This document shows, one piece after another, positions 2,279 through 41,361 of a DNA stretch of 64,000 nt. The DNA is from Eledone cirrhosa (taxonomy: Eukaryota). The notes below the pieces were generated by a model that saw nothing but the letters and a program-made list of their open reading frames with translations, searched no databases and was not told the DNA's origin. The number at the start of each line of letters is the position of its first letter. The stretch's first letter is position 1. The position numbers and the translations under genes were made by a program. Location of the stretch: positions 301,754,001 to 301,818,000 of the forward strand of contig OZ024741.1 in assembly GCA_964016885.1 (NCBI GenBank). The letters are read 5' to 3'.

Positions 2279-2784
2279 AACTCAATAGGACAGTTAATTT
2301 TCCAAAGCGATCCCGCCAGAAATAGATTCAAAAAATGGCTAAGAATCGTTCGTTAAAAAGAATGTGATTAGTTACTTACAGCGAGTAGGCTGGTTGCTAG
2401 AAAGCGCAGCCCAATATCGCCCAAATTGCATCTCAACCCAACGGGAGATTATTAAATATAAAGATTTACATATACATAAAGTCATAGATATATATGTGGC
2501 AACCGTTCACGATGTGGCTCAATGAAGAATTAATAAATTAAATAATCAGAGCAATATATCATGAATCATGTCCTTAGAATTATTAGATAAAATATATACT
2601 ATTTCCTCTCCCAATTAGCATAATTAACCATATAAAAATCAATTAGACCAGCAACCAGCCTACTCGCCGTAAGCAACTAATCACATTCTTTCTAACTTGA
2701 CCACTGCTACGTCACGATTCTTAGCCATTTTTTTAATCAATTTCTGGCAGGATCGCTTTGTAAAATTAACTGTCCTATTGAGTT

Positions 2785-2848
2785 TGTCTCCTGATGAGTT
2801 CGATACTCGAGATTTATCCTTAATACGAACGAAACCATGGTAGTGATA
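2785..2848 (+). ncRNA. Type I hammerhead ribozyme motif (second copy, shortened stem II)
   Basis: TGTCTC CTGATGA GTTCG...CGAAC GAAAC CATG GTA GTGATA. Confidence 0.7.
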
Positions 2849-8593: not shown

Positions 8594-9479
<886 letters not shown>

Positions 9480-13964: not shown

Positions 13965-16900
13965 GCCAACGCGATCAGTCGCATATTTTGGCGTGGGAGA
14001 CTATTTATTAAATTTAAGATGAATACTATCTTCGACAGTAATTGCCACAACTACAGTCAAGTTGAATAACTGTTTATTCTTCTAGCTATATCTTCTGAAG
14101 AGACCTTTTATTCGAATTCGTAGAGATATCCGACTAGATACATAATTCATTTTACAAGGATTTGCCACAAACAGCATGGCTGAACACAGCATCAACAACA
14201 AACTTAAGGAAGTATCGAAGACAAACAACGAGAAATTAAACAAACTTTATTCAGTTGTAGCTACAGAAGAAACCAAAATTATAAATCGCATTTCTCTTGG
14301 AGTTGCGAACTTAATGATGATTTATTTAATTGTTATAAAATGGCAAAAAACAATCCCTCTATTGGTTAAATGAACAGAATGAAGCTACACTGGGACGAAA
14401 TACACGCAGAGCTAAATTATTTCACAGCGAAACAATTACGCCAACAAGCGACGTTTGTTGAATGTAAAAATAAGATAAATATTATTAATTGTAAGTCTCC
14501 TTCAACAAACATGGGATCAACAACACGTGCTACAGGTCGCCATGCTACTAGACTTCCTAGCAGCCAGATCGAACAGCGCCTTGAAATAACTATGCCTGTA
14601 AGAAACTTGACACCACCTGTACCATCTAAGTCTACCTCGAATGCTGTGGAAAACACTATCGATAATAATAATAATCAAAGAAATAATAATAATAATCGAA
14701 GAAATTTGACACCACGTGTACCATCCAAGTCTACCTCGACTGTTGTGGAAAATACTATCGATAATGATAATAATCAAAAGTATAAACAATTGAAAATTTC
14801 CCTCAACGAAATCTTCCAGAGAGAAATTAATTCATGTATAAATATCTCTCTTGCTGAACGTGTTAAAACGACAATATTTAATAAAAGAACAAATAATGAA
14901 ATATTGCGTGTTATTGACGAAATAGGGGATGAATATTTACGACGGATAATAAAACTCCAACATTTTGGCAGATCAACGCCTGTTTATATGCCTTAGCAAC
15001 GACAGTGAAGCATTATCTTGGTGATAGCAGAGATATTAACAAGAACAAATCACCACCAAAAATACCATCATATATAACTAAAATAGAAAAAAAGATTGCT
15101 GATCTACGAAAAAACATAGGACATGTGACAATGCTCCTTACATGCAAACAAAGACAAAAAAACCTCACTCCTCACCAACAAAGAGTGAAAAATAAAATAG
15201 AGACGATGTTTGGTAACAGTAGAACCAGAACTATTCAATATAAGCTGATCACCCTCAAACAAGAATTGAGAGCTGTTAGCGAAAAACGCCGATACATGAA
15301 GAAGGTAGATGAGAGAAAAGTGCTTAATAAAAGATTAAGACGAAACCAAACATCAGTCTATAGAGATATGGAGAACAAAATAATAAGTGTCACTGAGGCC
15401 CCATCCCAGAAAGACATAGATTCCTTTTGGAGCAAAATATGGGGTGAAAAGAAGAATTTCAACCAAGATGCAGTGTGGCTAAGAGAAATCCAAAAGAATT
15501 ATTGCTCCTAAACTACAACAAAAACAGACGTAATAAGTGAGGGTACCCTTGAGACTGTGATAGGAAAACTCCAAGAGAAGAAGACACCAGGAAGGGACAT
15601 GATTGTCGGCTACTGGTACAAAAAACTGATATTCTATCGGAGGTATCTTACTGACCTCTACCAACATGTTCTTAAGGGAGATACACTTATACCAGAATGG
15701 TTGACATTAGCACAAACATTACTGTCTCCAAGAACAAAGACACCCACTTGGCAAAAAACTACCGACCCGTTGCATGCCAGAACCTGATATATAAGATGTA
15801 TACAGCCTGCCTGAACCTATTCCTCCAAGATCACTGTGAAAATAATAACAGCATCACAGATGAAGAAGCAGCTGGAAACAAAAGGGTTTGGGGATGTGCT
15901 GAACAACTCCTAATCAACAAAACTACGATGTCGGAGGTGCGACAACTTAGGAGGAATATGGCTACAGTCTGGCTGGACTACAGGAAAGCTTTCGATTCTG
16001 TTCCCCACTCTTGGATGATTGAGGCCCTCCAATTTGCTAAAGTCCCAGACATTATTATCAGAGCCATAGAGAAGCTGTCTTCTTCTTGGGATACTATCCG
16101 AAGATTAAAGACTGAGAGGGAGGTCTCTATTTTCACTGATAAAATAAAATATCGCAGGGGTATATTTCAGGGAGACAGTCTTCTGTGATATTATTCATCC
16201 TGTCATTAAACCCCTTGTCCCTTCTGCTCAAGAAATATGTAGGATACATCATTGGCTCACAGGAGGACAGAAATACGAACCTAACCCATAATTTCTTTGT
16301 GGATGATCTGAAACTCTATGCCAAGAACATGGATGGAATGAAGAAAATTCTTGACCTGGTTACAACATTCTCAAAGGATATAGGAGTGGATTTTGGCCAA
16401 AATAAATGCTCATATATGACTGTAAAGCGGGCAAAAACAACAACCCAATCTAGAAACATTGTCATCAATGGCCTAACTGTTTCACCGATATCTGATGAGG
16501 ACTGCTACAAATACCTAGGGATAGATGAGAACATATCGTATAATGGTATCTGCAATAAGGAACGCGTAACCAAGGAATATTTCACCCGATTAAGAAAGAT
16601 TTGGTCATCGGAACTCTCTGCGCAAAACAAAACAGTGGCTCACAATGTGTTTGCTGTGCCTGTCCTAACATCAACGTTTGGAATACGCAATTGGACGATA
16701 GTCGAAATCCGAGCAGTTGTGTTGGAACTCGAAAAATACTAAACAACACCGGAAACTTCCACATCAACAGTGACATAGACCGCCTTTACTTGAAACGTAA
16801 GCAGGGAGGCAGAGGCCATACATCAGTCCAGACAGAATTTGAATGTCACACCATATCCCTCCGACAACATCTGCGAACCTCGAAGCGTAGGAGCCCGTCT

Positions 16901-18042
16901 TTCGAGCAAGTCTATCTGCATGAAACAGATAAAATCATGAGCGTTGGGAAGGAACTCCTCGAGATATATTCCCTGTGTGATAATCAAAATCTCACACCCA
17001 GGGAAGTCGCTCAGCAGTATCGCAGTGAATCCATGGATGAAAAACTGCATGCTTATCAGCAAAAAATCATGCATGGATATGTTGCCAGCAAGCTCCAGAG
17101 TGAGAGTAATATAGATAATTAAAGTATTCTATCTTGGACCAACAACCGTTATATATTGAAGGATACGCTTTTGCAATCCAAGAGCAGGAAATTAACACAA
17201 AATACCTGATTCACAAAAGAGATAGGCAAAACACCTAGACATAATAACAAGTGCAGACTCTGCAGAACTAACATCGAAGATATCACCCATGTCATTAGCA
17301 GCTGTCCAAAGATGTCATCGCGGTCCCATCTACCTATGAGGCATGATGTAGTGGCCAAAGCACTGTACAATTCAATCCGTAAAAACGATAGCCCCGATAA
17401 TAAACACATTACAAGCTACAGTAATGTGGAAGACATCCATGTACATAATATGAAAGAGTACTGGTGGAATGTTCCAGTAAAAACCCCAATAAAATGCAGG
17501 CATAACAGACCAGGTATTATGATATGGGACAGGGAAAAGAAGGCATGCACAGTAGTTGGAATTAGCTGCCCAGCAGATGCCAATATAATATCAAAGATTA
17601 GCGAAAAGGAGAATATTTATGCAGAACTGATGAGGAATCTGCAGATACTCCACCCTGATTATACCTTCAGATTTATGCCTGTGATTATTGGGGCACTGGG
17701 GTATGTTAGTAACTGCCTCAATACAAATCTTGAGAAGCTGGGCTTCATAGGAACAGAAAGAACACAACTAGTTAGGAAATTGCAAGTACAATCCATTAAT
17801 GGAATAGTAAAAATATGTAAAACATTCCAAAAATGTTGCATCTAATAACTGCATATACACATGTACAGATACAAAGCATATACACATGCACACATACAAC
17901 TCAAAACATACACATCCACACATGCATACATAATCTACCTAGTTGATGTTGTGTAAATTTCAATGAGAGAGTCTTGTGTCTATGTTAGAAACCGACTCTC
18001 TCTCTATTGGTAAAATTTTGTGAAATTATAAAACCAGAAAAT
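13965..18042 (+). mobile_element. R4/Dong-clade RLE non-LTR retrotransposon, near full length, decayed, in (CATA)n
   Basis: RT motifs KTPGRDMI, NYRPVAC, WLDYRKAFDSVPH, RGIFQGDSL, FVDDLKLY, YKYLGI, DRLYLKRKQGGRG; CCHC knuckle CRLC...HVISSC; RLE motifs RHD, RP(G)I, ISCP, KENIY, PVIIGALG. (CATA)n on both sides. Confidence 0.92.
14176..17845 (+). pseudogene. RT-CCHC-RLE polyprotein broken by many frameshifts and stops
   Basis: Collinear ORF pieces 14370-14996, 15005-15511, 15557-15787, 15697-16188, 16185-16742, 16601-17122, 17312-17845. Confidence 0.9.
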
Positions 18043-18976: not shown

Positions 18977-18981
<5 letters not shown>

Positions 18982-19165
18982 AACCAGTAAGACCCCGACA
19001 GCTGAGCTCAAGCCGTTTCGACGGCTAATTCTCAGAATTAGCCGTCGAAACGGCTTGAGCTCAGCTGTCGGGGTCTTACTGGTTCCTATTACCCACTCTA
19101 CTACCTCAAGTATTGAGTACTTTGGTGCGTTATGGTCCACCTGGTTCCTTACCACATTTCCTTCG

Positions 19166-19167
<2 letters not shown>
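18977..19167 (+). mobile_element. Fold-back PLE-like element family A (56-bp perfect palindrome arms + tail) in (TA)n
   Basis: 18977-19032 is the exact reverse complement of 19034-19089. Contains the HHR 3' half GAAAC-GGC-TTGAGCTCA-GCT-GTC. The tail runs to (TA)n. Confidence 0.85.
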
Positions 19168-19204
<37 letters not shown>

Positions 19205-19205
<1 letters not shown>

Positions 19206-19341
19206 CAAAGGAATTGTGGTAAGGAACTAGATGGACCATAACGCACCAGAGTACTCAATACTTAGGGTAGTAGAGTGGGAAATAGGAAAAAGTATGACCC
19301 CGACGGCAGAGCTCAAGCCGTTTCAACGGCTATTTCTGGAC
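19205..19341 (-). mobile_element. Family A copy, diverged, without inversion
   Basis: Reverse complement of the 19034-19167 unit with substitutions; tail-to-tail with the previous copy across (TA)n. Confidence 0.85.
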
Positions 19342-19610
19342 TATATATATATACGTATATATATATATATACAACTTTTATATATATATATATATATATA
19401 TAAACCTTATTTCGTATGTTCGGTTGTCAAAAAAAACGATTCCTTCCTTACTACTAGATTGCCACTCACCCAAAATACTATACCTAGCACTAATGAGCTA
19501 ATAATTCCACTTTCTTTCTACGTAAGCCCGTCGTTACACGTAAAACATTAGGCCCAATACCTGAAGTAAAATCAGTAGCAAATAGGAGAATTATAAGCAG
19601 GTGGAAAATA

Positions 19611-19790
19611 ATTGTTTCTACAATAGGCACAAGGCCACCAATTATTCCAGTGTATTACTGGTACTTTATTTTATCGACCCCCGTTAGGATGAAAGGCAAA
19701 GTTAACCTCGACGCGATTTGAACTCAGAATGGCAAGGGCCGTAACTATGCTAGAAAGCATGGCGTCCGATCCTCTACCGATACTGCCAAT
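19611..19790 (-). mobile_element. tRNA-derived SINE (family 1)
   Basis: Same diagnostic body as 9954-10170. Confidence 0.9.
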
Positions 19791-20287
19791 ACACAGAAAA
19801 CCAATTCCTTATACGTCTAGATAAGTACCTTTGTCTTCTGATGGCTAATCAAAAACAATCTTTTTATGTAACAAAATATTTTTCATTCATTTGTATGAAT
19901 CCACAGCGTGGTCAATAACCTACATTCCTTTTCTCATATGTATTGTGATGTGAATAAATGAGTGCTATATAATTTTTCATATTTTAACATGTTAGCTATT
20001 TCCATGTCATTTAATATATTTCAAGGTATGTCATTGTTGTTTGTGTATGCAGAGCAATGTTTATGAATGTCCATTTGCTAACTTCAATGAATTATAACTT
20101 TGTTTCCTTGCAGAATTATTTTTATCGGTGCGATGCAAACTTTGCGGAAGTGGTTCGTTTGTAAAATGAAGCATGAAAATATTTATCTGATGATGCCGGT
20201 CATATAGTTATGAAATCAAGGCATGTGGAAAATTATGTGATGCCTGGTTAGATACAAGTGCTTTTAGTTAGTTTCGAAAGAGATGTG

Positions 20288-20997
20288 CACACGCACCAGT
20301 TGCTTTCACTTCAATTTATTATAATAAATTTATAAATTTAGGAATTTATAAATTTCTGGTTGGTTGGTTGGTTCCACAATCAGAGGGTTGTTTATATATT
20401 GTCAAAGTTCTTTCGTCACACATTCTGTGACCTCTTCAGTGACTGGGGATTCTTTTCTTTGTTTTTTGTGCCTCTCCTTTGTTCTGCCCTACGCCATCTT
20501 GTTTTTGTGTGTGTGTTGTGTGCTTAGTTTGCGCATGTGTTACATCAGGGTGTCTGTGTGTGTTTATATTCGTTTATTTATTTGTTTATTTATATGTTTA
20601 TTTACATGTTACTGGTTGGTTGTTTGTTCTATATGCGTGTGTGTTTTCATTTTGTCCTTAATTGTAAGTTGTGATGTTGTTGTTCCACTCATGTTTTCTA
20701 TTTAATTTTGGTTGGAGTTCATTTATGTTTATTGCCTCTGTGATTTGTCTAAACATTGCGTCTTTTCTGTGTGTAGATTCTATTTTTAATTCTATGTTCT
20801 CTAATTTACCCCTATGTTCTATTTTAGCATCTTTACTATCTTGAAGGTCTCGCCAGTGTTCATTTATCCGTTCCCCTACACTACGAGCTGTCTCACCTAT
20901 GTACACTATATTTTTATCTCTACATTGTCCTTCAGTACATTTTATGCTATATACTACATTTCTAGTTTTACAGTTAATATGGGGGCTTAATTTACAG

Positions 20998-20999
<2 letters not shown>
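20288..20999 (-). mobile_element. Penelope-like element, 5'-truncated: GIY-YIG domain + 3' region with HHR
   Basis: Open frame 20999-20658: ICKLSPHINCKTRNVVYSIKC...C...VYIGETARSVGERINEH...RQITEAININELQPKLNRKHEW; HHR downstream in sense; truncation point abuts (TA)n. Confidence 0.9.
20401..20443 (-). ncRNA. Minimal type I hammerhead motif
   Basis: GUCA-CUGAAGAG-GUCACA gaaug UGUGAC-GAAAG-AA-CUU-UGAC. Confidence 0.7.
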
Positions 21000-21038
<39 letters not shown>

Positions 21039-21043
<5 letters not shown>

Positions 21044-21225
21044 AACCAGTAAGACCCCGACAGCTGAGCTCAAGCCGTTTCGACGGCTAATTCTGAATTA
21101 GCCGTCGAAACGGCTTGAGCTCAGCTGTCGGGGTCTTACTGGTTCCTATTACCCACTCTACTACCTCAAGTATTGAGTACTTTGGTGCGTTATGGTCCAC
21201 CTGGTTCCTTACCACATTTCCTTCG

Positions 21226-21227
<2 letters not shown>
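21039..21227 (+). mobile_element. Family A fold-back element (second young copy)
   Basis: Identical to 18977-19167 except at the hairpin tip (TTC-T-GAA versus TTCT-C-AGAA); (TA)n on both sides. Confidence 0.85.
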
Positions 21228-21271
<44 letters not shown>

Positions 21272-21502
21272 CAATAACAGAGATAGTTTAAAGCTAAACT
21301 CTGACTGGTAACCATCTCACTCAACAAACATTAGGTTATATTAAAATATAAACCCAAATTAAGTGTTTGGGGTGCTAACAATATGTATAATGTGGAAAAA
21401 CCAGTTGTATTATTTTATGAGATATAATTAAAGTTAAAGTATATCTCTCTTTCCAAACAATTGTTTCATTATAAGTTTTCTACAAGTTTGGGAGAATGTT
21501 TC

Positions 21503-21535
<33 letters not shown>

Positions 21536-21890
21536 CAAATAAAATACAGAGTTACTAACTCATATTGATACCCTCCAATTAACAAGCTCAAAGTATAAAT
21601 ACTGTGTTAATAATTTTCGTGTTCCTAATATCATCATTAATATATTAAATATCATTTGTGATGGGAAATTTAACTATATTCATGTCATTACGATTTCCCT
21701 GTGTACTAGTATGTTATATTTTGCCTATGTGTAGTTAAGTTTATGAGAATCCAGTAGATGTTCTACAGTGGTGCTATGAATTGAGCTCTTATTGTTGTAT
21801 TAATTATTCAGCATATTTTTATATCATAGTTAAATGGTAATGTTGGTTGACTTAACTTTTTATATGTAATTAGTATGTACTTTTGTATAG

Positions 21891-22012
21891 CAGCGTTTGT
21901 TGTTGAATTATGGAGAGCCTGTTATTGCTGAAATTGAAGACTTTAATCTGGAAATGGATTACGCTTCCAGTTTTCTCTATTGCGTTTGTACTACGGGCAA
22001 GGATATGTTTAG
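21891..22012 (+). CDS. Candidate internal exon of an unidentified host gene
   Basis: TTTTGTATAG acceptor, AG/GTATTT donor, one open frame QRLLLNYGEPVIAEIEDFNLEMDYASSFLYCVCTTGKDMF, in non-repetitive sequence. No homology confirmed. Confidence 0.35.
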
Positions 22013-22060
22013 GTATTTGGTTTTGGTTGACATCTTTGTTTTTGTTGTTGTTTTTGTATA

Positions 22061-22380
22061 TACTCTCGGGTCCCAAATAATAGGGGAAAGTTGGAATAAG
22101 CGGGGGGGGGGGGGTGAAAATCAGTAATTTTTCTAGGTTGTCTCCCAAAATTAGCCGTTTAGTTTACATATTGAGATCCCAGCCCATCCTATTTATTTTA
22201 TAATGCGCTTTTTTGTCATGTGTAATGTTTTTTTAATGTATAAAGAAAATCAATTGTCGCAGGAATGCTACCACTTAAAATAAAATTTAGGCGAAGACAG
22301 ATTAGCAAAATTTAATAAATGGAGGGTGGTAAAATCTGAAAAATTAATAAGGGAGAGCGATTATTCAAGGCCCGAGAGTA
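22061..22380. mobile_element. MITE with TA-flanked TIRs
   Basis: TACTCTCGGGTCCCAAATAAT ... ATTATTCAAGGCCCGAGAGTA. Confidence 0.85.
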
Positions 22381-23002
22381 AGTATGGGAACTTTGTGTCA
22401 AGATGCCCTTATCGTTTTGGTTTTCTATAGTTAGCTTATGAGGATGTTACCACGAATGTATTTCACGCTTGCGTGGTTCTACATGTTTCCTGTCAAATCT
22501 CTATCAGCATTCAGGAGGAATCTTTCCGTCTATTCTAGACTGAATTCTAAAATAGCTCACGCATCTGTTTAGATGAAAATCTACTGATCCTTCGATTAGT
22601 TAGAGTGACATCTTAGTAACCACATCGTTGGGTCAAATATCAATGGCATTTATGTGTTGAAGTCTCTAGAAATATGATTCTATTTTGTTAAGTGATCTAT
22701 AGTTATAGCATATATATTAATCATGGCAAAACAAGAGGTGACAAAATCTATTCTGTATATTTTTGTTTCTTTGTTTAGGCAAGTATAAACTTTGCCTGAA
22801 CTTCTCTTTTCTTTGAAAGAAATACTTTGATTTATTATCAATATATTTCTCAACAATGTTGTTTGTAACCCGTCGGGAATAGTAATATTATTGTCATAAT
22901 ATTCAGAAGGAAAGATAATTTGTTTACTCGTCGGCTCATGACATATATTTTTTTATATAGCTGTTTGGTTATCGAAGACAAAAGAAATCTTATATTGTCG
23001 AA

Positions 23003-23855
23003 ATAATGGTTTTAGGCACAAGGCCAACAATTTTGGGAAAGGACAAAGTCGATTAAATCGATCCCAGTGTATTAGTGGTACTTTATTTTATCGACCCCCA
23101 TACGGATGAAAAGCAAAGCTAACCTCGGCGGTATTTGAACTCATAACGTAAAGACCCGTAACTCTATGTCGCAAAGCATGTTGTCCGACGCTCTATCGAT
23201 ACTGCCAATCCACAGCCCTTTTAGTTCAAATCCCATCGAGGTTAATTTTGCCATTCATCCCCCAGGATTCGAAGAAATAAAATGTCATAAAAGTACTGGG
23301 GTTGATATAATCGACGTTCCCTCCTTATTGTCGAAGTAATAGTAGTTGTTCTATTGTAAGGTATTAACAGCTAAGCCGGTTCGTTTCTTAATCTTGTCCT
23401 AGCAGTATCGGTAGAGTGTTGGACGCCATGCTTTCTACCATAGTTACATCCCTTTACGGTCTAAGTTCAAATCCCGTCAAGGTTAACTTTGCCTTTCATC
23501 CTTACGGGGTCGATAAAATAAAGTACCAGTAATGTACTGGGTAATATGCTGGCCTTGTGCCAAAAGTAGAAACAATTATTACCAATAAATTACGATGGCT
23601 ATTCTTTACAATCTTCTAATCATATAACTTTCAATATTATATACTTGTTTAGGGCGGTGGATTGGCAGTATCGGTAGAGTGTCGGACGCTATGCTTTGCA
23701 GCAAAGGGTTGCGGCCTTTTATGATCTGAGTTCAAATCCCGCCGAGGTTAACTTTGCCTTTCATCCTTACGGGTCGATAAAATAAAGTACCAGTCATGCA
23801 CTGGGGTCGATTTAATCGACTTTCCCCTCCCCCAAAATTGCTGGCCTTGTGCCCA
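23003..23855. mobile_element. Cluster of four family-1 SINE copies (one minus, three plus)
   Basis: Copies at about 23003-23220 (-), 23221-23320 (+, partial), 23401-23580 (+), 23651-23855 (+). Confidence 0.88.
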
Positions 23856-24917
23856 TGTACATAGGCAACAGAACTGTATGTTTTCGCTTATATTGGATTC
23901 CCGTAGGAGGGGGACCGAAGTCAGAAACAGTCGACTGTCGACAGATTATCCGCTCCTGCCTTTGCTGAAATCCACGTGATGGCGCTAGTCATCAGCTTCC
24001 AAAATTCATAGCTAAAGGCTTTCAAATGTATATTCATAAACATACCTATATCGCTAGATATTCAAATACACACACGCATGTGTGTGTGTAAGACAATGAG
24101 AGGATAAAAACGATATCCACTTGTATTGAAGTAATATGGTGTCCACTTGTATTGAAGTAATACAGCAATTGAAGTAATATGGTGGCTGTTAGGGATTGAA
24201 ACATCAATTTACTTATTGAATAGTTGAATAAAAATAAAGAGATCCTTTCCGTGTGGTAGAGCTATCTTCACCGTGTTGTCGTGTATGTATGTACACTATC
24301 CGGAGAGTGGATAGTTTCAGAAACTACATACGTTTAAGGAATTAGTCAAGAACTAAAAACTACTTATACATTCGTCAATTATTTAATGCAGCTGCTGTAA
24401 GATATTCATTTTAGACATTGTCAAGTTGAGCTACGTGATTTTGCAGCAATCGATATTAGGTTAGCTGTATCCACTTCATTGTCGTCTTTTTCTTAAAAAT
24501 GTAATGAACAGATATATTGAAAGGATTATATTATGTCCGGTAAAATCAACTTGCATCTGTCACATATGGGGCTTTTAACAAATAAAGTGCTCTACATTGA
24601 TGATGTCCAAAAGACAAAAATACTTGCTATATTCACATGGATAGTTAAATAAATAAATTGGGTTTACTAATGCCCCATTTATCAACATCCAAGAAGTATG
24701 TCGTTGTTCTATCAACTATAGCATCGATATTTTCCTTCTCAGTTCGATCTATATGGAGAACCCAATCAAAGTCTACACGAAGGCTGGTAGTTTTAATGAT
24801 AATCAATATATTATGATAATCAATATATTATTTTCAACTACATACAGAGAGGATGTTATGCTTCTATCAGATTTACATAATCCTAATAAACTACGTAGTT
24901 CTCTTGATGAAATACTA

Positions 24918-25120
24918 TACGAGGGAGTACTGAAAGAAGAATATACTGGAGGATCAGTTAATTATGATTTTGTTCAACATATTCTCCTCTCAGATTCACA
25001 CACTTATTGCAGCGATCCTTCAGTTTTTCTAAGCCCTGTAAAAAGAACTCGGAAGGTTAGGTCTCCAACCAGGCCTCTGTTGTAGCATTCAAGCCACGAA
25101 CTTTTCAGCAAATCCTCGTA
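24918..25120. mobile_element. Mariner-derived MITE
   Basis: TACGAGGGAGTACTGAAAG ... CTTTTCAGCAAATCCTCGTA termini; the interior resembles a transposase 3' end on the minus strand. Confidence 0.75.
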
Positions 25121-25678
25121 GCTAAGGCGAGCAAATTGAAATATAAATGAGAATTACAAGAGTCTAATCGTTCACTGTGACATAGAGCATATCAGTAGTG
25201 AGATATCCGATGCGAAATCATTCATTGTTTGCTCGGATAGTTTTAGTTTAGTTTTCACACGGGTAGGCTTAGAAAGGAGAGGAAACGAGCAACAAAACAC
25301 AAATACGAATCATGCAATATAACACGAAATTTGCTAACCTAAATACAACGAGATGAAAATATGGACTATTCCATTTTAATTAAATATTTTCAACAACAGT
25401 AATAAACAGAAAATATTTTATTAGATTAGATATGGGAACTATGTTTTATTGGGTGAAATATTGCTCCTAAAATCGCAACATTATAGAAATGTTTATATTT
25501 CTATTCTCCTTTTTTGCCGTGCTTTTATCCTAAACGTTACACAGTCGGTAAACAGAAAATCAATAATTCGGTAAACATTATATTATAGTTTGTTATATTT
25601 TTGCATTTTGCTCTCTTGCCATCCACCACTTCATTTCTACCTCTCATCCATATTGTATATATATTCCTCTACTTTTCT

Positions 25679-25726
<48 letters not shown>

Positions 25727-25819
25727 GTATATATATATATGCATGTGTATATATATATTGTGCATTCGGGAGTATAAAGTTTCAAGGCAGTTAATACAAA
25801 TATATAGATATGTATATGC

Positions 25820-25855
<36 letters not shown>

Positions 25856-26490
25856 ATGCATTCGTGTGTATAAAGTTTCAAGGCAGTTAAGACATTGATA
25901 ACATTTATTACAGATTAAAAGAAAACGTAGCATGTCGTCTGGCATGTGACTCCTGCAGAGTTGGTTCGATTACTTTTTCTCAATGAAGATTACTCATGAA
26001 CTAATAATAGTGTACGTGTATGTGCATAAACACATGCATATGTATTGTCCACCATTTCTCTGTGTGCTTGTGGTTATGTATAGACTTAAGTCTGGATGTA
26101 GGTTCTTTTCGTTTATTTGTTGTTTTTTGTACGAAAGGCGATTTGTGTGTGACTGTGGTAAAGGCCGTACATGTGTGTATGTGTAAGCCTGTGCGCCCGT
26201 GTGCATATATTTGTGATAGTGTGTATAGTGATGTTCGGGTGGCCTTATAAGAATACAAGGAACGTGATCGTATAAAATATCATACTGAGTGATCCACAAT
26301 ATCCTGACTCTGAAATATTTATATGATTTAAATACTGAATAAAAACTCCGTACTATTATGCAGAGAGCAGCACATATGTACAAACACATATACGTACTCT
26401 GTATGCATATACACAAGCATCCAAATACACTTACACAAATATAATCACATCAGCATACACACACACCTACGTATGCATAGAGAGAACATA

Positions 26491-26705
26491 AGGGCGGTGG
26501 ATTGATAGTGTCGGTAGAGCGTCAGACTACATGCTTTGCACTATATAGTTGCGGCTCTTTACGTTATGAGTTCAAATCCCACCAGGTTATCTTTGCCTTT
26601 CATCCTTGTGGGATCGATAAAATAAAGTACCAGTAACTTACTGGGTTCGATTTAATTGATTTCCCCTCCCCAAAAACTATTGGCCTTGTCTTAATCAGAA
26701 AACAT
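26491..26705 (+). mobile_element. tRNA-derived SINE (family 1)
   Basis: GGGCGGTGGATTG start, GTTCAAATCCC B-box, conserved body. Confidence 0.9.
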
Positions 26706-26948
26706 AATTCTACCGAACATATAAACAGGCACATAATTTCAATAACTCAACCTCCGTGAAATTTAATGACGTGAAAATATGGGTTCAAATGTACTCAGTT
26801 GTGTACAAAATTAAGTGGAAATAATGGAAGTGAAGAAATTTACTTCAAAGGGCCACAGAATTCTGAAGCTGGTTCCGAAACATGCTTCTCTCTAAATCTT
26901 TTTTATTTCCAATCTAATACTAAAGCTAGTTATACTTTAGGTATGCCG

Positions 26949-27300
26949 TTCTTCTTCTTCTTCTTCTTCTTGGGAGGGTTGTGGGTGCAGAATCCTCAAA
27001 AACCCCATCCATCGAGTCCTGTCAGAAGCAACTGACTCCAACTGATTCGAACGAGACCAGCCAAGCTCATGGATGTTATCCAACCATCTTACTCTGTGTC
27101 TATCCCTGGGTCTCCTACCGATTGGTATTGCCCGTAAAATCTGTCCAGCGATTCTTTCCCGAAACATTCTAAGCACATGCCCGTAGTATTGGAGCTATGG
27201 TCTCTCAATTTGGAGAAGTAGGGACTCTACCTGGAGTGACTCTCTGATCTCCGAGCTACGCACTCTATCGAGTAACATTACTCCAAACACCCTTCGGAGT
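26949..27300 (-). mobile_element. RTE (Rex3/Expander-like) 3' fragment with (GAA)n tail
   Basis: GRRPRDRHRVRWLDNIHELGWSR...VASDRTRW, then (GAA)n. Confidence 0.82.
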
Positions 27301-27884
27301 GTGTCATGCTGCAAACAAAACACGCGTACCGGTTAAACTTCCATTAGTTTTTATTATTAAACTGTTAGATTACCGAATAATATACGTTGCGGTATTTGTT
27401 CCTGTTCTTATATTCTGATTTTAATTCTCGCTAGTATCAACTTCGCCTTTCATCCTTCTGAGGTTGAGAAAACCTAATCATTATTAATGTGATATTTAAT
27501 TCACCTGTTGGGGGATTAATCTACCAGACAGCTAATAATCTAATTGTCAAAGCTCATTCATCACACAGTCGTTGGCCTGTGTTTCCTTTCTGTTTCAAAT
27601 AGATTTCCACGGTACTTCATCAAAATCAAAGACGACGACATTAACAACAAAATTACTAGTGAAGCAATATTTCAGCCATGTGAGTGTATATACAGTTGCT
27701 AGAATTGTTATCAAATAACACTCAAATACTCTTCAATCAAAACATATAACCTAGTAAGCGAATTCTATCCAACATTCAACAATGTCTTCGATGCAGAAAA
27801 AAAAGAATGACTTTGTTAGCTTGATAAGTTTTACCCAAGTTAAGATATGGGATGACTTTGGGGTTAAGCTGGAATTTGACTTTA

Positions 27885-28245
27885 GATCAGCAAATAAAGT
27901 ATTCTGGCAGACCATCCGCTGACTTAGTAATATGAGGTCCTCCTCCACACTTGCTATCGGGAGGGCTTCTGGGGTTCTTCTCTCTTCAGAGAGGAGCAGC
28001 CTCGCGATGTTAAGAGAATACTTTGCTTATCTCCTAAACTCGGTCGCAACAGCATCTTCTGGTGTACGTGAGATGCATCTGAGAGCGATGACTAACCTCT
28101 CGAAGGCTGAGGTCATCAGAACAATTAGTGCTCAAATGTGGCAAGGTCATTGGGGAGGATGAAATTTGGCCCTTTGGTGAAAGCCTTAAATAGAGAAAGT
28201 AACCTCTAGCCGACATGTGTGTGCCGGGTAGCCTGGGTCTCTGTC
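27885..28245 (+). mobile_element. RTE internal fragment (linker before RT)
   Basis: KVFWQTIR...GVLLSSE...LREYFAYLLN...AEVIRTI, then a G.DEI-like motif. Confidence 0.65.
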
Positions 28246-28724
28246 AGTTAGTGGGATAGAACCCAAAATCATATGGTTGCGAAACAACATTCTCAATATT
28301 TCGGCCATATGAGTGCAATTACATTAGTGACATTAAGTACAGTTATAATACTAATGCTGTCGACACGTACTGTGTAGCTTCAGAATATTTTCACAAATTG
28401 TATCAAGATATCAAGTTTTTAGAAAGGATGGGATCATAGATTAACAGATAGTACGAAATGTTATTGATAAAATAGATTTACAAGGAAATAAAAACAAAAT
28501 GAGTTACACAGAGTTATCTCCTATAAAATAAGATGACTTGAGAAATTATATTGGCAAACATTTTAGATGTTATCTTCGCTTTGTCGGTATCATCATACGA
28601 AATCAATTTGACTACTGCTCCCAAGCAGTATGGATCTTTTATTAAGTAAGCGTTTGAAGTCTGAAAAATTGGCAAAAACGCCAAATTCAGCAACATAATG
28701 TCACAATGGAATGGTTGCTGCGCA

Positions 28725-29235
28725 ATATCGAATCGCTCTAGGTTGGGCAGCTTTCAACAAGAACAAGGAAGTACTAACATCAAAACGAGTTTCCTATCAT
28801 TTGAAGACTAAGATATTTGATACTTACATCCTACCAGTTGTATTATATGGTCTTGACTGTGTTAATTGTACAAGGTCACTTCAGAAGCTCTCTACATTCT
28901 AGAACCACATCATGAGACTTATGACAGGCAAGCGGCTCAGCGACCGTATATGTATTAGTGAGCTGCTCAACATTACCAAACTTCAATTGTCAAGTCAAGA
29001 GTGCTCAAACTATACGGCCATATAAAAAGATCAACACGTGATGTGAGTAGATTATGTCTGGAAGGAAGGTTGGCTGGTAAGAGAAGCAAAGGCCGGCAGC
29101 CAAAACGATGGCTTTACAATGTCAACTTATGGACTGGACTTGATCTTTATTCTTTGAACTCTGCTGCTGGTGATCGAACATTGTGGAGAGAGAGATGTCA
29201 CATGTCGATGCACAGTCTGCAACTGGCGGAGTTTA
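28725..29235 (+). mobile_element. RTE-clade 3' fragment (post-RT region)
   Basis: RIALGWAAF...LKTKIFDTYILPVVLYG...LKLYGHIKR...LEGRLAGKRSKGRQPKRW...DRTLWR. Confidence 0.85.
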
Positions 29236-29914
29236 GCGTCTCAAAACAAATGTCACTAATCAACACATAAACTAACAACAAAACATAAACCAAAATAACA
29301 TCTCTAATTAACGTTACTAGTCTACCAAGGGAAGGGTGAGATTAGGTTTATAAGCCGTTGTCGCAGAAAATCAATTAAATCACCATTCAATACGAAAGAA
29401 ACTACAGAGAATAGAAATTACGCCCAATGTAATCATCTCAAAGAATGGTAACGAAAAGCCCCCAGTTCAAACTTTATGGTATTTAGTTAATATCCGTGAG
29501 ACAGAGGCTTCCGCCTACACAAATATACACAAACATACATACTTAATAACAATCAAACATCGGGATGAGCTCTTTCTGGCCTACATAATGTCTTAAATAA
29601 GTTGTGTTTATCCCATCTGCCGGTAAAACTCCCTCCCATGCATCCTCATCGAAGCACTGGATCCACTAAATTAGGTTAGTTGTGAAAGCGAAAACTCGGC
29701 GCTATAACCGATGCAATGCAAGTTCCTTCAATGGAACCGGTTCAACCCACCCTGGGTGAACGCCTCCACAAGAATAAATAAGTAGTAAGACAACGAAGGA
29801 GCTCACGTGAAACTGTGGGAAATATTTGTTGGTAACGGGATGAAGGATTAAACAAAAAGTAATTAGAGGAGCTAAAAATCTTCATCGGGAGAAAAACGTG
29901 ATCCTGGTATGTGT

Positions 29915-30190
29915 ATATGCATTTTTTCTTCTAACTTTAATTTTATACCTAATTGTGTATGGTTGACGATATATTTAATCGATTTCCACGTGCTATTGAA
30001 ATGCTGGGTAAATATTTTATGGCTGTTGATCGCGAATAGGGGGCTATCGTTTATTTATCTATTATTTCTTCACAGGTGCCTTTTAATCTTATAGCCTGGT
30101 TTAATTGTTTTTTTGCGTGGTTAATTATGCTAACTGGGAGATGAAATTGAGTATATATCTTATCAAATGATGCTAAGGACATAATTTATA
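29915..30190 (+). mobile_element. Diverged 3' fragment of the 1547-3236 family
   Basis: Aligns by eye to 2867-3131 and ends at (TA)n at the same terminus. Confidence 0.75.
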
Positions 30191-30211
30191 GTATATATAT
30201 ATATATATATA

Positions 30212-30306
<95 letters not shown>

Positions 30307-31577
30307 GCTTTCTATGTGGATATGAACTGGGACATACTGACATCTATATTGGTCAATAAGAGCAAGAAATAATTTTCGCTGATTCTATCCCCGGAGTTTC
30401 CACAGGATATGATGAATATCGACTACTTTCTGGCCACTTCGCCGATACTTAGTAAATATCTGTGGAAATGACAGGTTTCTTTGTTCTATCAAACTAAAAG
30501 GATATTGCAATAATGTTCTATTGAATCAAAGCTATACATTGAATCTGCTGTCTCTACATATCCTTTGATGATGAGTAGGATTTGCAATGACATAACATTT
30601 CTTTTTAAAACTAGCGGCTAAATGGAATAAAGCCGTGTGTCTTGTGTGACTGTTTCTTACTTCTATTTATTACACTATCATTTCATAAACATATTTTCTC
30701 TAAACGTTCGGTCCGTGGAATTGTACTACATAGGACATACCTCATCGATTTACGGACTTCTCCAATCGTTGAGAATAGCGTATTGCCTCTTAAACCCTTC
30801 TCTAAAAGCTGTCAAAATCTTTCCCATCCAGCACTGCACCTACCTCGGCTTTTCTATCCGTCTTCGTTTTCATACCGAACATTAATATTCTGGGATACAT
30901 CATGGTTGTTCTCCATATTAACTTTAACAGAAGCGATAAACCGTTTCCCTATAGAGACAATGGTTCAGAAAATATAAATGCACACGTTTTAACTTGCTGT
31001 CTGAAACAATTTTGTGTGAATGTTTGTGTATATGGGGAATAAATTTATCATATTAGGATTTCCTCGGTTTATCATAACACTTTTAACTGCATATTTCAGA
31101 AATTATTGATCAGAGCCACGAATAAATAATTTAATGATTTTATAAATATTTACTAAATCTTGTAATATGGAGAAAGGTAAAAAAATTGTTTCTTCTAATC
31201 GAATATTGCGCATAATATTAAATCATGCAATGATTTTTCTACAGATAGAATATACGCAATACAAGATCTTTTGAATGAGGACAAACGTTAATAATTGACG
31301 CTTTTAAACATCCAAGCTATTCAGAGTTTTACCTCCATGTTTATACATAAGATGGTTAAATGCAACAACGTACGATTCTTTATCTGTGAATATATGTATA
31401 CATTATGATTGTGAATAAATGCATATTTTGCACGTAGTGATTCAAAACTTTTATGTATGTAACATGAATGGAATTGGTAGAATATATATGCGTATAAACA
31501 CAGGTCTGAATTCTCAGGACAGGTTTTAAACTTATGCATACATACAAGGACATACGGACACACAAACAAACATATAG

Positions 31578-31610
<33 letters not shown>

Positions 31611-31623
31611 CATATTATAATAT

Positions 31624-31666
<43 letters not shown>

Positions 31667-31804
31667 AGTAAGTATGTTTTGAAACAGTGAGCAGGTTTGA
31701 AATTAGAAAATAGAATAGCTTTCACCGTATTTTTTACTAAAGGAATTTTAGCCTGATAATGGGGTTTAGAACCCTCAGATAAATGGAAAAAGATGAGTAT
31801 TGAC

Positions 31805-31845
<41 letters not shown>

Positions 31846-32182
31846 CATATATTTTATATACATAATATATATATTACATATTATAATATTGTGTATATAT
31901 ATATATATATACAATATTATATGTAATATATATATATTATATATATATATATATATACACATATATATATAATACACACATATACCTATATATATATATA
32001 CATATGTGTGTGTGTGTGTGTGTGTTTGGACCTAGAACTGGCAATATTATTGGAAGAACTACTTTATATTCCATTTGATTACGTAAATGTATATTCTGCT
32101 GATGTGGAACGTTCCGGATACTGAAACAGAAGTATATATTATATTGAACTCTACGGAGTCTATCTTCTTATTATTATTATTA

Positions 32183-32490
32183 TCCAGTGTCCGAAAATTG
32201 CTGACTTGTGGGTTTATGTCGAACACCTGCTGTCGCGTGTAGGACGGATCCGGCTATCATCTGAGTCCATCGTGAGGATTTCCCCGCCCTCTTCCTTTAG
32301 CCGGGAAGGGCAGGCAGTTTTTATCTGTCTGGTGGCCATGGCGTAAGAGATAGTATGGTGGACACGTTTGAAAGGGCTGAAGACGAGCACTTACCTCTTA
32401 CACGCAGAAATGCCCATTTGTACCGTCCTGTATTGTCCTGCACTGTCCTTAATGTCTACTTTATGTAAACCCTTGTGGTTAATAAAGAAA

Positions 32491-32492
<2 letters not shown>
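32183..32492 (+). mobile_element. Tx1/L1-like non-LTR 3' fragment in (TTA)n
   Basis: AVFICLVAMA*EIVWWTRLKG resembles a Tx1 ORF2 C-terminus; AATAAA lies just before (ATT)n; (TAT)n also upstream. Confidence 0.6.
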
Positions 32493-32539
<47 letters not shown>

Positions 32540-32766
32540 AGTAGAAGAAGAAGTTCAAGTAAACGAAATCGGGAGATAGCTTTGTAACACACCATGTCAT
32601 TGAATCTGCCTAAGAGTTAGGCTAAGAGTCATCTTACATCCGAATGTAATACACAGGTAGTACATTTGATCTAACAACTAAATAGACATATACATTTAAA
32701 ATCGCTCCACAGTATTTGTACCATATTAATCTTAAGTATATTATATTGTTAAGTATATTATATTAA

Positions 32767-32955
32767 GGGCGGTGAATTGGCAGTATCAGTAGAGGGTTGG
32801 ACGCCATGCTTTCTAGCATAGTTACGTCCCTTTACAGTCTGAGTTCAAATCCCGCCGAGGTTTACTTTGCCTTTCATCCTTACGGGGTCGATAAAATAAA
32901 GTACCAGTAATGTACTGGTTAATTGCTGGCCTTGTGCCTAAAGTAGAAACAATTA
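32767..32955 (+). mobile_element. tRNA-derived SINE (family 1)
   Basis: Conserved head, B-box and body. Confidence 0.9.
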
Positions 32956-33009
32956 TATTGTTGGCAATATTGTCGATCTACTCATTGTTTAGCCATGAGT
33001 AAAAAACAT

Positions 33010-33235
33010 TTCTTCTTCTTCACCCACTTATTCCTGAGAGGGTTGTGGAGGCAGAGTCCTCAAACGCTCCTTCCAGCGGGTCCTCTCAGAAGCAACCGTC
33101 TCCAACTAATCCGACTGCATTTCCACTCGAGACAAGCCGAGCTCATGAATGTTATCCAACCATTTTGCTCGGGGTTTACCTCTGGGTCTGCTGTCGGTTA
33201 GTTTTGCCCACAAAATCTTCCAACGATTCTTTCCT
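33010..33235 (-). mobile_element. RTE 3' fragment
   Basis: Homologous to 8302-8568; GAA tail. Confidence 0.8.
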
Positions 33236-33592
33236 TACTGACCACAAGATAAGCAACTCAGTAATTCGTAACAATAGAAGGTATACGATGCTGACGATAG
33301 CTAATAAGCTTGAAACTAGTACATCGTTCCTTTGTCAGTGTTGAACAAAAGGGCAACGATGGTTGCTAGACACTGTACGGCTTAATTCGGGATGTTTGTT
33401 TACAAACAAACCGAGCATTATAATAAATGTTCGGTAAACCCATAAATATAAATATATATATATGTGTGCATGTATGTATATATATACATACTACTGTACG
33501 TCTGTATACATATATGTATGTACGTATACTTACTTATATTTAAGTAACAGCCGTACTAAGAGTGAGGAATGAAATTTCGTTTCATTTTTTCC

Positions 33593-33634
<42 letters not shown>

Positions 33635-33642
<8 letters not shown>

Positions 33643-34225
33643 TAAAATAACAGATTAAAGTTTAAGCAAAGAATCGCTGCTTTCACCCTTAACGGGATCT
33701 TCTGAAACTAACAAAGTCAATCTGTAAACGACTTCTGCTATACCATTTACGTGGTTTTGTCTTTGCACGCTATTGTTCTCCACGCTCCACATATGACTTA
33801 TTATCTTCGTTTTTTCGTTCATTGCCAGAGAACGTCTCTATGCACCACTTAGAGAACATTAGTCTACAACCTCTTTTATACCATAAACGTGGTTCTGTCC
33901 TTGCACGTAATTGTTTTTCACCGCTCCTATTAATGACGTATTATTCGTTTTTTCCCGTTCTTTGCCAGCGAACGTCACCATGAACCAAAGTATCGTCTTC
34001 CTGTCTTCCTCCGGTTGCAACGTTTTTTGAAATATCCAGTTCTGCGTTTACAGATTGACTTTGTTAGTTTCAGAAGATCCCGTTAAGGGTGAAAGCAGCG
34101 ATTCTTTGCTTAAACTTTAATCTGTTATTTTAATAAATATTTGCTCTTCGGTTCTTATATATTTGATATATATTTTCCTTATCGAGCCCTCTCTGTATTT
34201 TAGTCTTCAATTTTATTATTATTAC

Positions 34226-34226
<1 letters not shown>
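33635..34226 (+). mobile_element. Fold-back element family B in (TA)n
   Basis: 33635-33730 is the reverse complement of 34045-34140. Spacer with two ~110-bp imperfect direct repeats. HHR-like CAGAAGA-TCCC-GTTAA-GGGT-GAAAG in the arms. Tail to (TA)n. Confidence 0.75.
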
Positions 34227-34277
<51 letters not shown>

Positions 34278-35601
34278 AGAGGGAATCTGTTACAACAGTG
34301 ACACATGCAGATAATTAAGTTTCGTTGGGCCAATTCATTCAGTCTGCCATATTGAGATGGAGTATTTCCGGAGAGATTCTTGATAGTATAGGAGAGTTCT
34401 AAAGACATGGAATCCTAAAAATTCCAATCGGTTAAATAATAAATTATGGTCAACCTTATATATGTAAAGGAGATAAATCTAACAGAAAAGTGGAGGGGGC
34501 GATGACTTGTGTTCAGAGAGAAAACAAGAGTTTATTTCTGTCACTCTCAGATTTCTTCTCTGGAAGAAATCTGGTGTCTTCAGATTCGGAAAGGAGATAG
34601 GCTCTGTCAGGTTTTTAAAATGCCCTAGAAACGTCCTATGTTAATACGGTGCCCCTACGACTACTTCGGATGTTACGGGACCATGCATACATGCTCTCTC
34701 TGAACACAAGTTCCGTTGTGTTTCAATATTAATCAACACGTGTGAAATTAATATAAATTTTTATGAAGTATTCTTCTTAAAATATATTACTATATTTCCC
34801 GACGTTGAAGACGCTTCGTCCTCGATGATGGATCCCTATTTTGACAACCAAAAATTTGTAAAACAATACACTTTTTTAAAAAGTCCTAGCACTTCGGGTC
34901 TTATTATCTAATTTTTTATGATATTTTTTTTTTTTTTACTACTATAACTAAGTTTAAGTTATACACTTCATTGAGAGGTCATATACAGTTCAGATTACTT
35001 TCGAGCATAGATAATTTTCCTCTGGGGTTAGGATATGCCTATGAGAAACGGAACCTTCGGCTTCCGGTACCCATGGTAGATTTTCGAGACTTATTTTAGG
35101 AAAAAGATAGCATCTTCGACCCTGGAAAATACGGTAACTATATATTAACTAATCACATGCAAACTGTTCTGTTAAATCAAGTTAATATATATATCTCAAT
35201 GAAATGTTTCAGGTTTTAATTAACTTAGTATCTACTTATTATTCAAATTAGCAAACTACTTAGTATTATGTGTAGACTTCACGTTTTAAAATTATGTAAA
35301 CTAAATTTTTATGCTTTTAAGAAAACTTCTAAGCAAAATATAAAATAATGATATCATCAATATTGTATGTTTTCGTTATATCTCGTATACAACTCATTAC
35401 TGCATCATTTATTTTTTTTTAAATGTTTATTTAAATAAGAGCTTCATTTTGTTGGTTGAAGTATCTAGACATACTTAACAGTGCTTTCAAAATAACTTCG
35501 CTTCGTAACGAATAGATTTTAGTTTTACATGCGTTCCTACATTTTTCCAATTTTCTTTTCAATTTTCCAATTGTCCTTTTCTTTATCCCTTTATTCGAAT
35601 T

Positions 35602-35630
<29 letters not shown>

Positions 35631-35635
<5 letters not shown>

Positions 35636-35766
35636 AACGAGTAGGACCCCGACGGCTGAGCTCAGCCGTCGGGGTCCTACTCGTTCCTATTACCCACTCT
35701 ACTACCCTAAGTATTGAGTACTTTGGTGCGTTATGGTCCACCTGGTTCCTTACCACATTTCCTCCG

Positions 35767-35768
<2 letters not shown>
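35631..35768 (+). mobile_element. Family A fold-back element (subfamily variant)
   Basis: Perfect palindrome 35631-35690 centred on TGAGCTCA, same tail, (TA)n on both sides. Confidence 0.85.
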
Positions 35769-41131: not shown

Positions 41132-41188
<57 letters not shown>

Positions 41189-41361
41189 TAGGAAAAATTC
41201 TGACCCCACGGCAGAGCTCAAGCCTTTTCTAAGGCTATTATATATATACACACAAAACCATTATATAAAAAAATACATATACACGCACAAATATACACAC
41301 GCCCATACACACACATTAAATCTATATATACACACATACATACATACACATATATACAAAC

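Follow-up and report, generated by a model that had tools for sequence, protein, structure and literature searches.

The stretch analyzed here comprises 64,000 nt of the Eledone cirrhosa genome (assembly GCA_964016885.1, contig OZ024741.1, positions 301,754,001 to 301,818,000) and is called the window below. It contains five copies of a short repeat family, assigned here to a Penelope-like element (PLE), and three of the five are palindromic. Perfect inverted arms lie at 18977-19032 and 19034-19089 in copy 1 (56 bp, 1-nt spacer), at 21039-21093 and 21095-21149 in copy 3 (55 bp), and at 35631-35660 and 35661-35690 in copy 4 (30 bp, centred on TGAGCTCA). As an initial annotation of the window had described, the arms of all three stop at one common base, a TAT is common to the arm end and the (TA)n flank, and each arm carries the same subfamily variants as its partner. 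No other palindrome with arms of at least 15 bp, a spacer of at most 12 and a GC content above 25% was identified in the window. Genome-wide counts were obtained by sequence-pattern searches. A 26-nt word of the tail has 21,486 exact matches in the 3.0-Gb genome and 0 for its reversed control; therefore, the copies are not chance occurrences.

The parent element was found by way of tails that do not continue into TA. It runs on as TAT-CTAG past the tail and is arranged in tandem units of 3,531-3,543 bp. Window positions refer to the 64,000-nt stretch, and parent positions are numbered from the A of TTAGTCC (position 726 of locus L131), which is +1. The palindrome arms are 5'-end fragments of this parent with ends at +58 (site 1) and +138 (site 2), each followed by TAT in the parent. 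Over 20,000 copies are present in the genome, most of them below 250 bp. The unit at L131 has a 784-codon open frame, giving an open reading frame (ORF) of 717 aa from the first Met. This ORF contains RWR at 37 (K to R), DKT at 117, YRDD at 348, a CxCX5C linker (CNCPDRSIC at 572), an endonuclease with VIY..YIG at 591 whose GIY-YIG-type core is without CCHH and has one Cys only, and, in its C-terminal part, CNLC (CxxC) at 670 and CKH (CxH) at 698. The (TA)n insertion target was found at the examined loci. Pfam and PDB searches with the parent ORF identified no match; its Atlas neighbours are PLE-type clusters with the families HTH_animal, GIY-YIG and RVT_1. The expectation of a Penelope-like parent with a hammerhead motif and an ORF combining a reverse transcriptase (RT) with a GIY-YIG-type endonuclease is borne out by the 3,531-bp unit and its 717-aa ORF.

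Judged by these motif marks and by a by-eye comparison with the supplement of Craig et al. 2021, the parent is a PLE of the Hydra clade. Comparisons with published work refer throughout to the cited portions of each source. Hydra-1_Obim (PMC8557442) has RW(R), DKT, CxCX5C, CxxC/CxH, the lack of CCHH, (TA)n targets and a hammerhead in common with the present family, and the protein blocks of Hydra-clade PLEs in the printed supplement (PMC8557442) are visibly alike by eye. Hydra-1_Obim is, however, listed as 2,507 bp with no pseudo-long terminal repeat (pLTR) and a different hammerhead (PMC8557442), in contrast to the 3.5-kb unit, ~1.1-kb 3' untranslated region, tandem arrays, 80-nt tail, U3-A8 core, 37-39-nt loop II and more than 20,000 mostly <250-bp copies seen here. 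The Neptune/Nematis/Naiad clade was rejected as a candidate, as neither a CCHH with two Cys in the GIY-YIG core nor a CX2-5CxxC linker was found. A non-LTR retrozyme was also rejected: the short copies are half-ribozyme palindromes or solo copies, and whole hammerheads occur only in long copies. Separately, a second, divergent Hydra-like endonuclease region lies upstream of the family tail at L021:560-1000, possibly a chimera of families.

The long copies present a type I hammerhead layout with stems I-III around the core, GAAA and a GUC triplet. In the parent, the 5' strand of stem I and the core box (TTGAGAA) occupy -48 to -37 and the 5' strand of stem II -36 to -28; loop II (-27 to +10), the 3' strand of stem II (+11 to +18), GAAA (+19 to +22) and loop III (+27 to +35) follow, with the predicted cut at +41/+42 and the ATG at +232. 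Over 14 distinct long copies, 97.6% of the cells are paired across 18 pairs, compared with 16-57% in slid controls. The CTGANGA box that had been anticipated upstream is not there in that form; the box is TTGAGAA (U3-A8) or CTGAGAA, never CUGANGA. U3-A8 is a known variant in the PLE hammerheads of Schistosoma (PMC4209133). In an older subfamily (L014 and L024 neighbours), one G-C to A-U change in stem II was seen by eye. In the minimum free energy fold, stems I and II form and stem III is shifted.

Other observations are less favourable to the hammerhead assignment. While the core pair is U3-A8 in 10 of the 14 long copies, the other 4 have a C3-A8 mismatch; no two-sided covariation was found among the 14 similar long copies at 93% identity; an Rfam search of the parent gave no match; and the fold is no more stable than shuffled sequences (z = -0.31). 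The mismatched long copies are L008, L055, L127 and L130, and copies of the B type nonetheless also end at +42.

Copies of the family in the window, with parent coordinates (+1 as defined in the text)
Feature	Window positions	Strand	Remarks
Copy 1, tail-less inverted arm, parent +6 to +58	18980..19032	-	starts from internal site 1
Copy 1, tail-bearing arm, parent +5 to +138	19033..19166	+	blunt junction with the inverted arm, no microhomology
Copy 1, hammerhead 3' half	19039..19074	+	stem II 3' strand, GAAA, stem III with palindromic loop, GUC, stem I 3' strand; structure counted on 14 long copies
Copy 1, predicted self-cleavage point (+41/+42)	19069..19070	+	second genome-wide edge of tips and of solo copies
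Copy 1, site 1 TAT (+59 to +61)	19087..19089	+	end of tail-less arms; likely priming site of one target strand; TA loose ends at L131:786
Copy 1, tail (80 nt) between both priming sites	19087..19166	+	
Copy 1, site 2 TAT (+139 to +141)	19167..19169	+	parent reads TAT-CTAG, so TAT is common to the target here too; TA loose ends at L131:866
Copy 2, older solo tail-bearing copy, start exactly at +1	19205..19342	-	match at 19203-19335 is 88.7% identical
Copy 3, tail-less inverted arm, +5 to +58	21042..21095	-	longer than partner arm; 1-nt microhomology
Copy 3, tail-bearing arm, +7 to +138	21095..21226	+	
Copy 4, tail-less inverted arm, +28 to +58	35634..35664	-	rare class that turns on the 8-nt palindrome of loop III
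Copy 4, tail-bearing arm, +28 to +138	35657..35767	+	
Copy 5, old solo tail-less relic, +9 to +58 (site 1)	41191..41239	-	match at 41188-41237 is 78% identical

All five copies are present where the initial annotation had placed them; the relic at about 41190 is a tail-less solo copy. Of the two non-inverted copies that had been said to stop at about stem II, the one at 19205 instead runs to +1 (window 19342), and the relic covers +9 to site 1.

A sample of copies was aligned to the parent. It drew on the first 100 listed tail matches, of which 88 were used, and on the first 100 listed matches of one subfamily with 843 in all, of which 50 were used. After the removal of 2 duplicates, the 136 copies, all from contig C1, comprised 102 inverted copies, 19 short solo copies, 10 long copies and 5 that were dropped (L001, L013, L028, L060 and L154). 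L076 was reclassified as a solo copy and 10 gapped copies were corrected by hand. An unselected subset contains 66 palindromes. The tips of the palindromes are far from uniform, as had been predicted, and have sharp edges at +1 and +42.

The first edge is by far the more populated. The furthest arm end falls between -5 and +7 in 88 of the 102 sampled palindromes and beyond -5 in 1; in the unselected subset, the corresponding counts are 55 of 66 and 0. Genome-wide, this loop II (+1) class amounts to ~9,800 junctions (9,807 forward, 9,846 reverse, control 0). The ORF-continuing copies L103, L105 and L108 also start in the +1 zone. Read depth drops between L131:743-755 and L131:704-716, upstream of +1, by ~21-fold in contigs X1 and by ~11-fold in X4 (another organism), and TA loose ends occur at sites 1 and 2 in all four read runs. 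The +1 position sits at an initiator-like TTAGT, with a weaker edge at -4; in the older subfamily, TTAGT is at the same distance from stem II and tips lie at +2 (L024, L028, L060, L099). No downstream promoter element was seen by eye at +28 to +32 against the consensus. In one unusual palindrome (G000:C1:172998107-172998157), both arms reach +1 and a (TA)n run lies between them.

Of 13 junctions with an untemplated insert next to an arm that ends at +1, 10 have a G as the neighbouring base; among ends elsewhere that permit a G, the share is 8 of 31 (p = 0.003). Beside arms ending at +42, G adjoins in only 6 of 46 (p = 2.5e-5 against the +1 arms); thus, the extra G belongs to +1. The copying of a cap as an extra G is known from L1 work. 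From these features, +1 is likely a capped transcription start inside loop II of the ribozyme, and start sites of Penelope have been located in the pLTR (PMC2377424, PMC6765202). The solo copies give less help to this assignment: a G precedes 14 of 77 of those joined to TA, compared with 1 of 25, an excess that is not significant in a hand tally (p = 0.11), and TG occurs in the target microsatellites.

The second edge coincides with +42, which would be the first base of the 3' product if the hammerhead cuts after GUC (GUC/G). The tallies in this paragraph, like those of mixed palindromes below, were made by hand on the first loci listed, and the patterns differ in sensitivity. A pattern for tips at about +36 to +43 identified 381 loci (control 2). 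Of the 50 listed, 34 have both arms stopping exactly at +42, with an untemplated insert between them in 23 and a blunt join in 11; in 8, one arm stops at +42 and its partner at +41 or +43; in 6, the arms meet through a CCG microhomology; and 2 are of other types. For the 11 blunt junctions, annealing of CG could also explain the position. A second pattern identified 513 loci (control 11); of 50 listed, the furthest arm ends at +42 in 23, is shorter or ambiguous in 23, and goes beyond in 4. Solo copies present the same edge: when 65 loci were listed and 14 with a tiny inverted arm were set aside, 25 of the remaining 51 began at +42 within the 11 positions from +35 to +45 (binomial p = 2e-13 against uniform). 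In an older subfamily, the furthest arm ends at +42 in 11 of all 17 loci. The layout (TA)n-arm-arm-tail-(TA)n was observed at 20 of 20 examined loci, which were chosen among the +42/+42 type of the 50 listed. Bases added next to +42 are A or T rather than G; at oriented loci with a single added base, the A lies on the tail-less strand four times and on the tail strand three times, in line with two primed cDNAs.

Several hundred genomic copies therefore end, to the base, at the predicted hammerhead cut. These tips would be fossil evidence, of an indirect kind, that the hammerhead cuts in the living germline. Evidence for cleavage in vivo has been stated to be lacking for the hammerheads of PLEs (PMC4209133; bioRxiv 10.64898/2026.07.22.740005). 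Against this proposal, the cap, the start site and the cleavage are all deduced from DNA.

The anatomy of the copies, the two edges, the added bases, the asymmetry and the target duplications described below are direct observations. The explanation that we consider probable is that the copies are 5'-end fragments of a Hydra-clade PLE for which both (TA)n strands prime at two internal UAU sequences, and that two cDNAs run off the 5' end of one RNA and are joined head to head. The endonuclease would nick both (TA)n strands ~12-14 bp apart, and each nicked 3' end would pair by 3 nt with the UAU at site 1 or site 2 near the RNA 5' end. Both cDNAs would then run off the RNA 5' end, either at about +1 (more weakly at -4) or at +42. 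If +1 is a capped Pol II start, the main transcript would have only the 3' half of the hammerhead and no self-cleavage in cis; read-through RNA from the tandem units would hold the whole ribozyme, give rise to the long copies and sometimes be cut at +41/+42. Both cDNAs would usually come from one RNA molecule, the longer displacing the shorter, and joining may occur by template jumping or by end joining, accompanied by short inserts or by trimming back to microhomology. Palindromic words (TGAGCTCA, GTAC, CG) would serve only as annealing points of two like strands. Double priming, the use of the same RNA and the joining route are the parts of this scheme that we infer.

The agreement between arms bears on the use of one template. 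Mixed palindromes, in which one arm reaches +2 or further and the other about +31 to +44, were found at 268 loci, and ~23 of 100 listed start at +42. After correction for pattern reach, the mixed +1/+42 class is estimated at ~130, compared with 2,600-3,200 if arm ends were independent, and is thus ~25-fold rarer, a rough figure as the patterns differ. It follows that the template molecule sets where the arms end, or that one arm copies the other. Arms share their subfamily type at +38 in 49 of 50 cases. Of 99 arm pairs, 57 are identical and 42 differ, with a divergence of 1.7% per base. In L011 and L054, the segment between the two GCCGTC repeats, which belong to stems II and III, is missing from one arm and retained in the other.

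Not all of the data favour two cDNAs from one RNA. Copying of one arm from the other would also make the arm ends match. The arms are of different subfamily type in L023, L037 (at three linked sites) and L190, and the same +36 variant is on one arm only in L014, L016 and L097; therefore, two RNAs or gene conversion are at times involved and one RNA is not the only route. Target duplications count on both sides. In favour of two primers, the interrupted TA flank is duplicated in 11 of 41 informative copies (114 examined), with 10 of the 11 duplications being 11-14 bp long, compared with 46 of 1,640 mismatched control pairs (2.8%); against them, the remaining 30 informative copies have no target duplication. 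In addition, an in vitro study of an Anolis PLE reports that priming needed no target homology and, in the portion cited, no RNA-seq ends at the cut site (PMC11167929).

The matching ends and the concordance of arms could also arise from a single cDNA with its primer at the tail end. After running off one or other of the two RNA ends, it would add a few bases, make a U-turn on itself and be copied back as far as the site 1 TAT, where it meets the target again. Inserts of 3-7 nt might then in part be loops, and self-priming has been proposed before (PMC3846280). The junctions speak against such a turn. Of 102 turns, 35 have inserts, 28 have microhomology of 1-2 nt, 20 have microhomology of at least 3 nt and 19 are blunt; in 37, the formal loop is 2 nt or less. 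At a threshold of 10 nt, the tail-less arm exceeds its partner in 20 copies and falls short of it in 9 (p = 0.06), and in the unselected subset the counts are 14 vs 4; at a threshold of 1 nt, they are 40 vs 40. In L061 and L137 the arms do not overlap, and in L062, L140 and L142 the +1 position and its extra G are found on the tail-less arm and are missing from the tail arm. The tail-less arm of L132 exceeds 3 kb, both arms carry a tail in L013 and L108, and solo tail-less copies exist, such as copy 5 of the window. On this evidence, a single cDNA is an unlikely origin for the palindromes. The junction inserts of L090, L160, L052, L143 and L170 copy nearby element sequence. Such templated inserts resemble those of polymerase-theta joining.

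The two edges could also be produced if two cDNAs on a long, uncut RNA stall at a loop II hairpin (~+1) and at the base of stem III (~+42), with neither a cap nor cleavage. An A/U hairpin is predicted in loop II from about -16 to +5 and overlaps +1, the ends are spread over -5 to +7, and +42 sits 1-2 nt from the base of stem III. These points speak for stalls and against a cap and a cut. However, the edge is at +42 and not at +41 or +40 where stem III begins, and a weak A/U stem would have to stop ~90% of the copies while stronger G/C stems are passed. The extra G is specific to +1, and independent stalls predict thousands of mixed palindromes, not ~130. Stalling is improbable to about the same degree as the single-cDNA turn.

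The initial annotation had proposed that a nascent cDNA stalls within the ribozyme, folds back on stem II or stem III and self-primes the second strand, so that the turning points coincide with the ribozyme hairpins. In part this holds, as copy 4 turns on the loop III palindrome, 144 loci turn there exactly, and a few junctions use stem III complementarity (L017, L066). This class is ~1.5% of the ~9,800 loop II junctions, and the main tips mark the +1 and +42 edges instead. Neither arm holds the 5' strand of stem II in 101 of the 102 sampled palindromes and therefore stem II cannot form there. The geometry of a tail-arm snap-back with at least 2 nt of pairing is present in 5 of 102 compared with 9 for the opposite geometry, and a zero-loop turn on a palindrome better fits two annealing strands than one that folds. 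Fold-back on ribozyme stems is largely refuted as the main route and now seems very unlikely. The ribozyme does remain tied to the turning points in a minority of copies: the link appears to be catalytic, with the cut site as the template end, and not structural.

Lastly, the palindromes might be chimeras of assembly or library preparation, or long inverted repeats whose centres were deleted after insertion. Restriction site-associated DNA (RAD) reads end at L131:733, a likely AATT cut inside the tip zone, and so cannot show symmetric tips; their end peaks at 674-677, 722 and 733 were discarded for this reason. The same raw reads, from two other samples, contain opposite-strand joints of L131:722-739 to 780-808, mostly with 1-3 start points. 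The independent mutations in the arms and the target duplications favour real insertions over artefacts. A later deletion would have no reason to start in the +1 zone, yet this is where the longer arm stops in 22 of the 29 copies with strong asymmetry. Artefact or later deletion is the least probable of the explanations considered.

Several parts of the scheme have precedents. The Poseidon PAc element of Anolis, studied in vitro by Frangieh et al. 2024 (PMC11167929), has two internal RT start sites flanking a tail and an AT-rich target in common with the present family. Its protein cuts and extends both target strands and is predicted to be a dimer, and inverted products are not modelled in the portion of the text cited (PMC11167929). 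In contrast to Poseidon PAc, both sites here have TAT in common with the target, and the cut site is where inserted copies accumulate. The Penelope elements of Adineta and Drosophila (PMC3846280, PMC2377424) also have head-to-head inverted pLTRs with an optional tail and a promoter or start site in the pLTR, with target duplications of 8-10 bp. Their inverted pLTRs are attributed in those sources to self-priming on an antisense template, whereas thousands of junctions here fit two sense-templated cDNAs that end at RNA 5' ends.

A further parallel is twin priming, a model originally proposed for L1. In this process, the second target strand primes internally on the same RNA and the inverted 5' piece is end-joined (PMC11702581). 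The second L1 primer lands at variable sites and gives pieces without overlap; in the present family, the site is fixed and both cDNAs would reach the RNA end, giving a palindrome. With PLE hammerheads and animal non-LTR retrozymes (PMC4209133; bioRxiv 10.64898/2026.07.22.740005), the family has the predicted type I fold, a palindromic loop III and the U3-A8 variant in common, and opposite-strand hammerhead pairs have been noted there. Unlike retrozymes, the short copies hold half a ribozyme and are not tandem monomers. An array of tandem 254-nt units (+1 to +254) at L105:1386-2043, restarting at about +1 with each unit and ending at site 2, has the appearance of repeated jumping to a template from the 5' end of the RNA; it is retrozyme-like without a whole hammerhead.

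Inverted pLTRs, tails, target duplications, pLTR promoters, two internal start sites and ideas of self-priming are thus in print already. The initial annotation knew of no earlier description of a link between ribozyme and palindrome. A 2013 paper had put forward self-priming, with an antisense template, for inverted junctions that are palindromic (PMC3846280); the record of the cut site was not found in print. The literature search identified no report of PLE copies that end at a hammerhead cut, of a start site inside a hammerhead or of a two-cDNA origin of palindromes, and older PLE papers could hold precedent. The result is a new family of a known element class with a mechanism-level finding not found in print.

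The surroundings of the copies include other mobile element remnants. Copies 1 and 2 lie tail to tail in one (TA)n tract (19166-19205) and form a second, imperfect inverted repeat that draws sub-threshold miRNA matches; the pair L018/L019 is similar but head to head. Among the matches listed for the whole window (150 of 300), Rfam gave just sub-threshold matches of the miRNA type. Directly beside copy 3, a fragment of a different PLE endonuclease is located at 20661-20996 on the reverse strand (Pfam GIY-YIG, E = 1e-5) with a two-Cys core of the Neptune/Naiad type. A broken retrotransposon at 14370-17845 on the forward strand, presumably of the non-LTR type, contains an RT and a C-terminal restriction-like nuclease region in several frames, and at 8660-9061 on the reverse strand lies what we take to be the remnant of a mariner-like transposase.

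With the explanation by two cDNAs in mind, a broader proposal may be put forward, for and against which we see about equal weight. The inverted end plus tail of PLEs would arise because a staggered cut lets both strands prime, each at its own fixed site on one RNA, leaving in this genome thousands of dated records of RNA 5' ends. A promoter inside the hammerhead would leave the mRNA with half a ribozyme and hence safe, while read-through RNA would be cut in the germline, with the hammerhead acting as a sensor of read-through and its cleavage product being retrotransposed. Two open questions of the PLE field thereby become directly testable. Where the Anolis study of 2024 had no RNA-seq ends at the cut, several hundred copies here stop at the predicted cut, and a likely capped start inside the ribozyme is the end point of about ten thousand. 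The same count of junctions can be applied to any PLE-rich genome without RNA, and the model predicts the in vitro products of this telomerase-related RT.

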